A DNA stretch of 56,545 nucleotides, counting the filler, from Dugesia japonica (taxonomy: Eukaryota), in the NCBI GenBank assembly GCA_001938525.1. It is 6 parts of 6 records of this genome, joined end to end, with 100 filler letters (N's around TTAATTAATTAA, not from the genome) between each part and the next. Parts side by side here need not be neighbours in the genome. Positions count along the whole stretch, not along the records: positions 8,882 to 17,512 come from MQRL01618016.1; 5 more parts are not named here. One strand, 5' to 3'. Both the position numbers and the translations under genes were made by a program. Positions 8,882 to 17,512 of the stretch are shown here, in pieces (positions within the stretch are counted from its first letter, which is position 1; each line of letters begins with the position of its first letter). The notes under the pieces are model-generated. The model worked only from the letters and a program-made list of their open reading frames with translations. It was not told where the DNA came from and made no database searches.

Positions 8882-9348
8882 AGTTGGGATTTGTTGTTTA
8901 CATTCACATTTACTAGGAAAGGACAGGTAGGAAACCATTTCCTATGTGCTTTATTGGGTTGCTTATTCATGCCCCATTTGTGTAGGACGCCTTGACAATG
9001 TATACATTTTACTTTATCTGGTCGTTCTTGGATACCGACGTAGTAAAATCCTTATTTGGCTAGGGCTTCAACGAGTCCGTATAAATATTTAGGTAGTCTA
9101 GGTAGCGATTGCTTCCTTGCGTTTTCGTCCTGGTACTTCTCATCAAAAACTTTCATTGTGCTGTAACACACCCTTTTACTTATGAAATTTTCCGGTGCTG
9201 CAAATACGTTACGGTAGTGCATTATGTTTTATGTTACTGGGGTTTGCTTGATTTCCTCTCGTCCTTTGCTCATGACCAATTATTCGATATCGGGGTCTTC
9301 CATCAATAGTCTAACCTCCTGTATTGATATTTTGAAATTGAATTCCAT
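8882..9348 (-). pseudogene. BIR-domain (IAP-like) gene with three in-frame TAA stops, running off the contig end
   Basis: Translation from ATG 9348 includes ENARKQSLPRLPKYLYGLVEALAK*GFYYVGIQERPDKVKCIHCQGVLHKWGMNKQPNKAHRKWFPTCPFL (9126-8914). This gives the conserved Arg, LAxxGFYY, DxVxC, exact CX2CX16HX6C with the internal W, and CPF. Confidence 0.9.
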
Positions 9349-9562
9349 TATCTACAAGAGTTATATTATTACTTTTGATTATATAATACTATTTTATTGT
9401 TTTTTGATTTCACCTTATAAAACGTGTTATGTTACCTCGAGTACATATTTACTTATGTCGAATATAGGCATAAATATACGTAAATATAAGTATTTATTTA
9501 TTTATTTATTTAGTTATTTATATTTCTCCTTTTTTTTTAAAACTTTCCCTCTCTATTAGATT

Positions 9563-10182
9563 TCAATCAAAACTGACTTGGTTGTGGACACTCCGGGTCT
9601 TGAGTGTCTCGATTTCCCATCTTTGTGAAATTACTAATTTTCTAAGGTATTTGAGTTCTTTTGACTGATCAAAGATTAAGTCGTGTTGTTTGGCTACCAA
9701 CTCCATTGTATAATTTGGCTTTTCTGTAACGATTTCCAGCATTCGTCGATTTTCTATTAGTTGCTGCCGGCACATAAGGGTTTCTGCGAAGAGATTTTCA
9801 TTCTGTAGTTGTAAGATTTTATTCTTGTATTCCAACTCGCACCAATCTAAGGGTTTCGTTGTTATAAGGGTTTGTACTAATTGATTTTGATTGTGCTCCA
9901 GTTCTTCTAATCGTTGTTGGGTCCATTGCGTTTGGGTTCTGGCACTATTTCATAATTCTTTCATTTCCTCGTTATGGTTTTGCCAGATTTCATTTATCGT
10001 TGCTTGTTGGGGTATATTGTTTATAAGACTATTTATTTGTGGAAATTTCCGGTGAATGGTGCACTCGGAACTAAATCAGTTTGAGAGTCCATAACTTTAT
10101 TTTCGATTGTCGCTTCTTTTTGGTTCATTCCGGAATGTGAAACATTGATTAACCTCGCTACTGTTTCTTTTTCTATATACAT
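9563..10182 (-). pseudogene. Accessory coiled-coil ORF of the retroelement (about 200 aa, one frameshift, one TGA)
   Basis: ORF 9563-9835 extends upstream through TGA 9952-9950 and a frameshift near 10050 to ATG 10182. Q/E/L heptads; PSAP at 10057-10068. Confidence 0.55.
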
Positions 10183-10233
10183 ATTAATAAGTAAGTTTGT
10201 CATTTACACTATTTACAAGTAATTTCTCCTTAT

Positions 10234-11913
10234 TTAACATACCAATATACCCGGTGCTTGGTAGTGTCCGGGCCTGTACATTGGTAATTCGTGAGGTGCG
10301 TTTCCTAGCGAAATTCCCTCATAACTTGGTGGGGCGAATGGTAATTGTTGTTCCCGTCTGCTGTGGTGATGTTTCTTTTTCTTTGGTTTCGAAACACACA
10401 GACAAATAATGCTTATTATTAATACCGTAATAATAACTCATCTGATACCAAATACATATCCTAATTCCTGACCTCTTGTTGGTTGTACTGTGGTAGTAGT
10501 TCTCCTAGGTTCTCTAGTGATTTTTTCTATGCTTTCCAGATGATTCTGTCTTGGCTCAAATTTGCGTATATTTGACATCTAATTGTTCAGAAACTCTGCT
10601 CTTTTTACTTCCTTCTCAGGATTCTCTGTGGTGGTGTTTATCTGAATTTTAGTGGTAGTTGATAATTTAGGCGTGTGTGTGGCCATTTCGGTAGTCTTCT
10701 TTTGTTTTCCTTTTGTTTTTGTTTTGATTATTATATCCTGATTGATTACTGTGATGAATTCGAATCCCCATAAATCCTTGTCAAATTCTCCAATACACAT
10801 TTCCTCGTACTTTTCGTTCCTCCAATACTCTTTACTATTAAATCTCCAACCCCATTCCTAGAGATCTTTGATCGTATGAATTACTACTTGTTCCGCCTTT
10901 TCCATAAACCATATGTAATACCTACCCTTAACCTTTTTTACTTGTAGTGGATATGATCCCGATTGCCAATATGGTTTCCATCCTCCAATTTCCTTGTTCA
11001 TTATGGAATGTACTTTTCGGCCTTGAATGACGGTTATGCTTTTTTGTCCTATTTCATGGCCTATTTCTCATCCCACCTCACCGTTCCGTATTGCATGTGC
11101 TGCCATATTATCGTATGGTAGAGATATTTGTTATTTGGACATATCTTTATTATTTGATTTCCTGTGTCTTGGGTTATCTATGCTTAGTGCTTCACATTAT
11201 TTTCTGAATAATTTAGTACACAGTTAATTTCTCGTGCGGGTTTGAATTCGCTATTCGCTTCGTAGACTAATGGATTTTTTTCATTTTTTAACGTACGTCC
11301 CATACTTTCTCCATCTGCCACTTGTTGATATTATACATTAGTAGTTTTCCTTTCATTGGTTCTTGACTTAGGAATTTTATGATGATTTTTCCTTTTGCTC
11401 GGTGCAGTTTAATCATGGTGCTCTTTTGACTTTTGATTACTGGTGTTAGAATTAATGGCCCGTTACTATGCAATGCTTGAGTTTTCTGCTCCCTTCGCAG
11501 CCATGTATGACTTACTGTTATGACGTGTATTTTACCTTTCCAGATGAATATTCTATGTTCTGTTAGGACCGGTTCGTTTACCTGGCATTCTTGTCCTCTG
11601 ATTCCCTTTAGGATGATTATTACAGTTGTTAGTATGATCTGCCCACTGGGAATCCCGTTCTGAGAAGTTACTTGTACTTGCCGTATTGCTAATGCTGGTA
11701 ACGCGAGCCCAACCAGAATTACTCCGGTTACCCCATACAATATTAATGACATAGGAAGTCCTCTTCCCATGTTTCCGATTATTCTCATTGTCAACCACAT
11801 TAAAATGCCATAATCCCAATTCGTGTTGATTACTGCCCATAACAACAGAGATATTTTAACTACTATTTCATTGTATTCCCCTTCTCGCTTTTTTGCAATA
11901 GTTCCTTTTTTGG
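10234..11913 (-). pseudogene. Env-like membrane glycoprotein (hydrophobic N-terminal segments, ectodomain, Thr-rich stalk, C-terminal TM, cytoplasmic tail)
   Basis: ORF 11288-11845 has three hydrophobic stretches, the last signal-peptide-like (IILTTVIIILKGIRG/QEC). After frameshifts one frame gives a W/Y-rich ectodomain, a Thr-rich stalk and TM LGYVFGIR*VIITVLIISIICLCV (10464-10393). A basic stop-transfer KPKKKK and PPSY follow. Confidence 0.65.
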
Positions 11914-16260: not shown

Positions 16261-16339
16261 GATCCTTTACATGGGTAAAACTTTCCAATGATTGTAACCG
16301 TAATGTTGAGAAGTGCAATATACCATTTTTCATCAGGAC

Positions 16340-16615
16340 TGGAAGAATATTTGTTCCTAGAATACACTGTCCCATCATTTCTACTATGATCATATTGTGT
16401 TTAATTTTGTTATCCTGATATTTGACTTCACAGGTTAATTCTCCAAAAATTTTGAGGCTACTACCATTTGCTACATCTGCTGTAGTGTTCGTGGGTAGTA
16501 TGTTTTGTACTCGGTTATCGCAATTTCATCTATTAACAGCAACGATATGGTTGCTCCTGTGTTCAATAGGGTTGTTATGGGTCAGCCGTTGATTTTAACT
16601 ATAATGGTTATTACT
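16340..16615 (-). pseudogene. Retropepsin domain 2
   Basis: VKING*PITTLLNTGATISL, then ADVANGSSLKIFG and CILGTNIL; NTG at 16555-16563. Confidence 0.8.
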
Positions 16616-16949
16616 GGTCCACCGTTGAGGCCTGTGCATACTACATCGGAAGGGTTATGACTGGAGTTTGTTTGTGTTTTGTTTTTCCATCTTGGTTCTC
16701 GTTCTTGGAATCTTATCCAATCGTCCCTTATCAAGGTAGTTGTATTGATGATTTTCTGATGGTCTTGATTTGCATTGTTTGGTTCATTTCGGCCAGTTGG
16801 CCGCGGTCGCAGCCGGTTGTGTGTTGGCCGATTCCATTGTTGTGGTCGTTTCTGTTGGGCTATTATTCGAGTTTTCTGATAACCTACCGGTGCGTATTCT
16901 TGATCATAATTCTCCCGTATCGTTAGTTTTCTCAAATCTAATATTCCCT

Positions 16950-17235
16950 CTGGACAAAGGCGTGGCAAGAGGTCCAACCCTAATAAACAGTCGAATGCTA
17001 ATTCTTTCATTATTTGCCGTTTATGCTAGAAACGGATTCCATCGCTTTCTATCGCACATATTGCTTCTACAACGGGTGAGATTTTTTCTCCCGAGGCTGT
17101 TATGATAACTCTTTTATTGATAGTTATTCTAAGTAGGCGATAATCTTCTAATATCCTTTTATGGACTAACGTCGTACTTGCCCCTGTATCAATAATAGCT
17201 ATTACCCATCTTCCATCGATTTTTATTCTTTTCTG
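16950..17235 (-). pseudogene. Retropepsin domain 1
   Basis: IKIDGRWVIAIIDTGASTTLV, then ITASGE and DCLLGLDLL; DTG at 17182-17190. Confidence 0.9.
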
Positions 17236-17512
17236 TAATAATTTTGCTTTCTGAGAAATCATCATACAATCGGTTTGAGTCTCTAACTTATCATCCTCCG
17301 TAATTTGGTTATTTGGAGTGCGCAAGTTTTGTTCGATTACTCTTCGGTCCATAGTTGATACATTGTTCTCTGTTAATAGCGCCATATTCGGGGCTTGTAG
17401 TGGGTTTATATATGGATTGTTGTACATGGGATCTGATGCCCATACTTGCTGGGGTGGTTGGTATATGGGTTGCCAACCATGTTGTGGATAAGCGTTATAG
17501 TACATTTGTGCT

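Follow-up and report, generated by a model that had tools for sequence, protein, structure and literature searches.

A dead planarian Ty3/Gypsy retrotransposon copy with a tandem protease and three probable cargo genes after integrase

Planarian genomes are more than 70% AT and rich in Gypsy elements (PMC11410931), and the Burro elements of planarians combine BIR, Smc coil, ankyrin, MATH, BCL2, and dUTPase-like motifs with an env placed between gag and the protease (PR) (PMC6431247). The B-IAP of Burro1, a RING-BIR region, is reported to protect stem cells against caspases (PMC13465017, citing Lee et al. 2026). In Ty3/Gypsy elements that bear an env, only F-type and gB-type env proteins have been found, the flatworm members being gB-type with the order GAG-ENV-POL (PMC13524379), and calls of env made from transmembrane (TM) features alone are unsafe (PMC5408684). 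Our subject is an element in a 56,545-nucleotide (nt) stretch of joined contigs from Dugesia japonica (assembly GCA_001938525.1), which we call the window. It fills the 8.6-kb contig at 8882..17512 (MQRL01618016.1, element on the minus strand) and, on the evidence of linker joins on both sides, GC content, and many diverged copies, is an internal fragment of a large, decayed Ty3/Gypsy long terminal repeat (LTR) retrotransposon.

The reading we favor, and hold to be likely, is of a defunct member of an abundant Ty3/Gypsy family whose pol encodes two proteases and whose integrase is followed by three cargo genes, the family likely having spread by ordinary copy-and-paste inside cells and its BIR protein likely having blocked caspase-driven death of the copying cell. 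The observations that carry it are the domain order, the coding signal, the many copies, the linkage of the cargo in other copies, and the decay. Every gene of the contig lies on the minus strand, in the order PR, PR, a weak dUTPase-like domain, reverse transcriptase (RT), RNase H (RH), integrase (IN), an extension, a membrane open reading frame (ORF), a helical ORF, and a BIR/IAP ORF. An earlier sequence-only reading had proposed this order, apart from the dUTPase-like domain, and Pfam now identifies PR, RT, RNase H, integrase, and BIR, the coil being a prediction. GC is 34 to 40% in the contig against about 0.24 in the flanks, the window being mostly 20 to 30% and about 25% overall. The contig edges are 100-nt joins (N44, a 12-nt linker, N44) at 8782-8881 and 17513-17612, so the element continues past the contig, as had been supposed, and the flanking DNA need not be its true neighbor. 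Gag and the LTR pair presumably lie outside the contig, within which no terminal repeat was found, and no Rfam match and no tRNA were found. Fixed joins of this length, with a linker that stops all frames, are also at 26576-26675, 36799-36898, and 47313-47412; the window is made of stitched contigs, and neighbors across joins are perhaps not adjacent in the genome.

Set beside the described systems, the element resembles Burro-1 to -4 (GYPSM1) in its Gypsy pol with a dUTPase-like domain between PR and RT, its BIR cargo and, putatively, Smc-type coil cargo, its AT-rich host, and its decayed copies (PMC6431247), a likeness judged from the published description. The Burro traits found here are the BIR/IAP cargo and, weakly and below the Pfam cut-off, the dUTPase-like domain between PR and RT. 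The RING, ankyrin, MATH, and BCL2 of Burro are not seen in the 8.6-kb contig. Burro elements are giant, with lengths of more than 30 kb and long LTRs. The Burro env is in frame between BCL2 and PR, a part that here falls in the gap, and the Burro section of PMC6431247 mentions neither a tandem protease nor a 3′ type I membrane ORF. Errantiviruses share with the element a membrane-anchored ORF of env size behind pol; unlike them it has no F-type furin site with fusion peptide and no cysteine scaffold, and the flatworm errantiviruses differ further in their gB-type env and GAG-ENV-POL order (PMC13524379). The bdelloid rotifer elements Juno, Vesta, and TelKA likewise have a dUTPase between PR and RT, and ORF3 cargo that includes TM and coiled-coil ORFs, but in the text of PMC5408684 they have no IAP (the word "apoptosis" occurs 0 times), whereas our element has three cargo ORFs in a row. 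Anti-apoptotic cargo is an already published theme; what seems new is the doubling of the protease, the 3′ membrane ORF without homologs, and possibly an IAP housed in the LTR. Literature searches on tandem proteases, extra ORFs with fibronectin type III (FN3) or IAP domains, and BIR capture found no account of such a gene order; Grohme 2018 and Lee 2026, with their supplements, and Repbase may nevertheless cover the family. A second IAP-cargo architecture would tell whether the host-protecting trick arose once or often.

The pol region begins, in the 95 residues that the contig has upstream of the first protease (PR1), with a linker rich in Pro, Gln, Tyr, and Asn at 17230..17511, which is in the PR1 frame, is recognized by its codon score, and is likely the tail of Gag. 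PR1 at 16963..17226 has one in-frame stop and matches Pfam gag-asp_proteas (E = 4.8 × 10−12 for the piece, in two stretches). The second protease (PR2) at 16330..16617 has one stop and one frame switch, and is matched in its second stretch by Pfam RVP. A single frame from 17511 to 16519 contains the complete PR1 and, past a polar linker of 130 residues, the first part of PR2, which resumes after the frame switch. The second half of PR2 aligns to the protease of P0001, a 1515-residue polyprotein that is the best match of the element. PR1 and PR2 have 25 to 33% identity without any DNA match, so the doubling is old, and since both are covered in the DNA runs described below as deeply as the enzyme core, the tandem protease is a trait of the family. 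It is rare among the relatives examined. Of the 110 that have an RT match among the best 120 of 224, many of them incomplete or integrase-first, protease-like motifs upstream of RT are two in 1, one in 70, and none in 39. A literature search on tandem or duplicated proteases in retrotransposons found nothing relevant.

Downstream of the proteases, a weak dUTPase-like domain at 16019..16204 scores E = 0.0068 to PF00692, with 16.6 bits against a cut-off of 22, in a region that aligns to P0001. RT at 15183..15780, interrupted by a frame switch, matches RVT_1 (E = 9 × 10−25), and RNase H of the Ty3/Gypsy type at 14647..14940 matches PF17917 (E = 1 × 10−32). The RH-IN linker and integrase, with an H2C2 finger, core, and GPY-type C terminus, are at 13219..14643 (PF17921, E = 9 × 10−18; rve, E = 9 × 10−13). 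The PR-RT-RH-IN order, the Gypsy-type RT, RNase H, and integrase, and the collinearity with P0001 place the element in Ty3/Gypsy (Metaviridae). Identity to P0001 is 43% over integrase and about 50% over RT, and a quick integrase tree joins the two as sisters with a Shimodaira-Hasegawa approximate likelihood ratio (SH-aLRT) of 97. That tree has 56 of 121 rows (the 45 best RT-first or RT-less and 10 of 53 integrase-first, 4 having been dropped as short), SH-aLRT as its only support, and neither named clade references nor a Burro sequence. Scans of IMG/VR gave no match, and a metagenome scan gave three distant loci with integrases 29 to 34% identical and cargo absent. In the integrase frame follows a 450-residue extension (11866..13215) with one stop where about 30 are expected; its first half is of low complexity, and its second half contains Cys and is deeply covered in the DNA runs. 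The extension has no match in Pfam, PDB, or NCBIfam, and a single weak one in PHROGs (E = 0.016).

Coding DNA on the minus strand runs from the end of integrase at 13219 to the gap at 8884, which bears out the proposal of about 4.3 kb of further same-strand coding sequence. In a codon model trained on pol, 0 of 500 shuffles match the score of the extension, of the two large pieces of the membrane ORF, of the coil ORF, or of the IAP ORF, and the 3′ ORFs favor one frame each, with 0 to 5 stops where 11 to 30 are expected. A GC content of 0.37 to 0.39 and an A-rich skew are common to pol and all of the 3′ ORFs, and the flanks differ. The two AT-rich spacers that had been pointed out are confirmed, neither being assigned to a strand. 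One, at 10185..10233, has 22% GC against 37 to 39% in the ORFs; the other, at 9350..9560, has 20% GC, a 4-nt tandem repeat at 9491-9521, and no coding signal, with 9350-9559 scoring as noise (474 of 500 shuffles). The assigned reading path is interrupted by 17 internal stops and changes frame about 8 times, which the sequence-only reading had not remarked on, so this copy is dead, and the catalytic motifs of PR2 and RT are degenerate in it. Some of the stops and frame breaks could be assembly errors. The fossil state limits what this copy can show.

Four sequencing runs (two DNA, two RNA) were compared with the element at 85% likeness. The DNA runs gave 18947 and 12224 matching contigs, with 30 of 30 bins covered in each, and the lowest bin held 871 and 481 against about 20 and about 10 for near-identical single records. 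Among the matching contigs 77% are less than 95% alike, with transitions dominating (784 vs 284), and by these two runs the family is dispersed and many-copied. Contigs diverged by 8 to 13% run from the membrane tail across the spacer into the beginning of the coil ORF at 10092-10375 in both DNA runs, and across the extension-membrane junction at 11799-12070 in one. Deletion joints that keep the order link 9998 to 11546 (both runs, side 48) and 9182 to 9605 (one run, side 37); two further ones, 9357-9740 and 9411-10702, are short-sided and carry little weight. Some other copies therefore join the 3′ ORFs in the same order, and the cargo belongs to the family, in agreement with the sequence-only reading, which took the 3′ ORFs as accessory genes of the Gypsy element itself. 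That reading also asked for the distribution of the 3′ ORFs against pol; run roughly, the comparison finds all bins covered and linked copies, but a depth that is not flat. Mean depth is 51629 and 16551 over RT-RH-IN, and 29054 and 11228 over the coil ORF, 56 to 68% of the enzyme core. From the two RNA runs, which were sampled at 6% and 25% and whose only tie to the element is the species label, came 5 and 52 reads; almost all of these match in part, none reaches 95%, and no splice joint is visible in them. Contamination was considered as a source of the element and rejected; the source records, among which no RNA record was listed, are from three studies with one organism code, and copies are abundant.

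The last two ORFs are shorter. The helical ORF at 9566..10182 has one frame switch and one stop, and is a predicted coiled coil; AlphaFold2 gives the stop-free part (9566-9949) three long helices with a predicted local distance difference test (pLDDT) of 80. No fold match in PDB or BFVD was found at E ≤ 0.001, and a crude heptad score is not above shuffles (163 of 300). The IAP ORF at 8884..9348 has one BIR (about 9141-8908; Pfam BIR, E = 1 × 10−14) and three stops, and is truncated by the gap. The BIR coding region has no intron, keeps 4 of 4 zinc ligands (C-x2-C-x16-H-x6-C), and aligns to the BIRs of NAIP, cIAP, and XIAP (57 sequences). Between the two ORFs, at 9523..9542 on the minus strand, there is a run of T4 followed by 16 purines, a candidate polypurine tract and the only such tract in the contig. 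It arises in 26 of 5000 shuffles of the spacer and 19 of 500 shuffles of the contig, the pattern having been picked post hoc.

A further question is whether the membrane ORF is an env. This orphan type I membrane ORF of about 560 residues (10237..11914) is recognized by hydropathy, motifs, and coding signal, and is broken by stops and frame switches. Its layout is of hydrophobic N-terminal segments, an ectodomain that is likely beta-rich, a Thr-rich stalk, a membrane helix at about 10455-10399, a basic stop-transfer run, and a tail. In all three minus frames of 10490-11914 there is no furin site with hydrophobic fusion peptide, and the ectodomain of about 500 residues has 4 Cys and 2 sequons, so that both the cleavage features and the cysteine-rich ectodomain of errantivirus env are missing. 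As a positive control, the same script finds in the tail of the relative P0076 a furin-plus-hydrophobic site and 14 Cys in 568 residues, and in that of P0027 a furin site alone and 22 Cys in 705. Searches with the membrane-ORF pieces of Pfam, PDB, PHROGs, NCBIfam, 5.8 billion sequences, representatives, and the Atlas gave no true homolog, the Atlas, the representatives, and folding having been given the N-terminal half or piece only; its C-terminal frame has none among 352 candidates of 176 to 560 residues. A lone match of the N-terminal ORF among 1.84 billion representatives, to a seven-repeat transporter, was rejected because its summed score is spurious, with 8 bits in reverse. The model of the N-terminal piece has seven strands at pLDDT 43, mostly under 50, a low confidence that proves nothing, and a fold search with so poor a model gives generic helices only (best Z = 5.5). 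The label env is unsupported, and the ORF is env-like in topology only. As a candidate for a third type of retrotransposon surface protein it is one that env surveys baited with F and gB would miss.

P0001 has the same layout as the element in PR, dUTPase-like domain, RT, RNase H, and integrase, followed by signal, ectodomain, stalk, membrane helix, and basic run. It differs in having no 450-residue extension; its membrane part, which is in frame, contains 9 Cys and is FN3-like in its feature profile. Of the 120 best of 224 relatives, 3 have a membrane segment after integrase, P0001 included. As observations in their own right, the Gypsy pol of P0001 continues in frame, at residues 1110-1515, into a type I membrane protein that is possibly a captured host surface protein in env position (ectodomain FN3-like at 0.89 by Atlas features, a lead only), and the Gypsy polyproteins P0076 and P0027 extend in frame past integrase with cysteine-rich tails that look env-like and that Pfam leaves unlabeled.

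Several points weigh against the reading we favor. Depth over the membrane ORF is 3052 and 1450, and over the IAP ORF 3751 and 2121, 8 to 17 times below the enzyme core (11 to 17 times for the membrane ORF alone), so either these two ORFs diverge fast or they are absent in most copies. Variable linkers inside pol drop equally far (3815 and 1201; 871 and 486), hence depth seems to track conservation, summed contig depth not being copy number. No single record in the runs covers the whole element, and coil and IAP are linked by a single long-sided joint, from one of the runs. The membrane ORF and the P0001 tail do not align (best E = 0.25), and decay could have erased a furin site.

These points bear on what else the element might be. 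An origin of the 3′ block as a mosaic, with the coil or IAP ORF from a second inserted element or from host DNA, would account for the uneven depth and for the AT-rich spacers that flank the coil ORF, but we think it highly improbable when the 3′ ORFs match pol in strand, composition, and codon bias, the BIR has no intron, other copies have bridging contigs and ordered joints, and no second RT, transposase, or terminal repeat was found in the contig. The spacer at 9350..9560 could hold an LTR boundary. If the tract at 9542-9523 is the polypurine tract, the IAP ORF is inside a candidate 3′ LTR that begins near 9522, in U3, and each new copy would carry the IAP twice; a gene in U3 has a precedent in sag of mouse mammary tumor virus. 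The tract lies directly after the coil-ORF stop, is unique in the contig, and is followed by non-coding AT-rich DNA, so the earlier statement that no LTR is reached stands for terminal repeats within the contig and may fail at this tract. No TG follows it, though, IAP depth is below that of pol rather than above, and the boundary is masked, 9480-9528 having been skipped as repeat in the run comparison, so we judge an LTR-housed IAP rather doubtful. There is a fair chance, though we lean the other way, that the element belongs to an already annotated planarian family (Burro-2, -3, or -4, or a Repbase Gypsy) with its anatomy known. Burro is described with a BIR, an Smc-type coil, and, between PR and RT, a dUTPase-like domain, and its decaying fragments with stops and frameshifts are reported from one planarian (PMC6431247), and a window of about 25% GC with three further Gypsy remnants is consistent with planarian genomes. 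On the other side, the tandem protease and the 3′ membrane ORF go unnamed in the Burro section of that paper, and the RNA runs under the same species label are unlike those of an actively used element.

An enveloped, infectious Gypsy, whose membrane ORF would encode a glycoprotein for fusion or attachment that falls in no recognized class and whose budding would be driven by PPSY and PSAP, goes somewhat beyond the enveloped, possibly infectious lineage that the sequence-only reading suggested, and we find it quite improbable. The motifs themselves are there, PPSY in the membrane-ORF tail at 10332-10321 and PSAP close to the coil-ORF N terminus at 10068-10057, but not in Gag. Late domains normally are in Gag, and a PPxY tail would recruit Nedd4-type ligases. 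PPxY and PS/TAP occur together in 6 of 5000 piecewise shuffles (PPxY alone in 338, PS/TAP alone in 68), a rarity that favors the idea, with the caveat that the motifs were chosen after the fact. The position, size, signal-like N terminus, and single C-terminal anchor of the ORF are env-like, the sister element P0001 likewise places a membrane protein there, and the low read depth is compatible with a fast-evolving surface protein. Against this, the ORF matches no Pfam family, solved structure, or protein representative, has no furin site with fusion peptide, and is poor in Cys (4) and sequons (2). The envs of errantiviruses belong to the F or gB type and conserve their cleavage sites or cysteine bridges (PMC13524379), and env calls based on TM alone have been wrong before (PMC5408684). 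Furthermore, the P0001 tail resembles FN3 host proteins on the Atlas lead above, this copy is broken, and the RNA runs gave no close transcript. A bolder version, in which a distinct Gypsy lineage comprising the family and P0001, with tandem protease, acquired a surface protein of neither F nor gB type with which it spreads from cell to cell, buds via PPxY and PSAP outside Gag, and independently captured an IAP, possibly LTR-housed, we rate as unlikely.

Our preferred reading, of an intracellular Gypsy with accessory cargo, can be put in terms of the usual Gypsy cycle of polyprotein, protease processing, reverse transcription, and integration. The pol product, which may extend into the membrane ORF as it does in P0001, would be cut by its own proteases, and the coil and IAP ORFs, both of which follow an AT-rich spacer, would be read from spliced or separate RNAs. 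By analogy with the B-IAP of Burro1, the IAP likely lets the host cell survive the damage that integration causes. Membrane and coil proteins would both be accessory, the former a fast-evolving surface or trafficking protein more probably than a fusogen of the F or gB type. If the family has a true env, its place would be 5′ of the proteases, within the gap, as it is in the flatworm elements with GAG-ENV-POL order.

Elsewhere in the window are three more decayed Gypsy remnants, at 41200-44350 (plus strand), 47369-49000 (plus), and 49950-53900 (minus), which are unrelated to the element in DNA and have integrases 24 to 33% identical to it. A coil-like open frame of 106 residues at 33740-34060 (minus), in an island of 31 to 33% GC, is possibly a remnant of another element. 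Repeats include a 156-nt tandem duplication (97%) at 54287-54603, producing a hydrophobic minus-strand open frame of 212 residues that is probably no gene, and a 92-nt unit in three diverged copies (66 to 71%) at 21813-22085 that has no long open frame. Host genes are represented by a PGAM5-like phosphatase at 23945-24414 (plus), with a 47-nt GT-AG intron at 24217-24263 and matches to one protein at 63% and to two ant proteins, which suggest an animal, and by two long Glu/Lys-rich exons at 3072-5168 (minus), a probable host coiled-coil protein.

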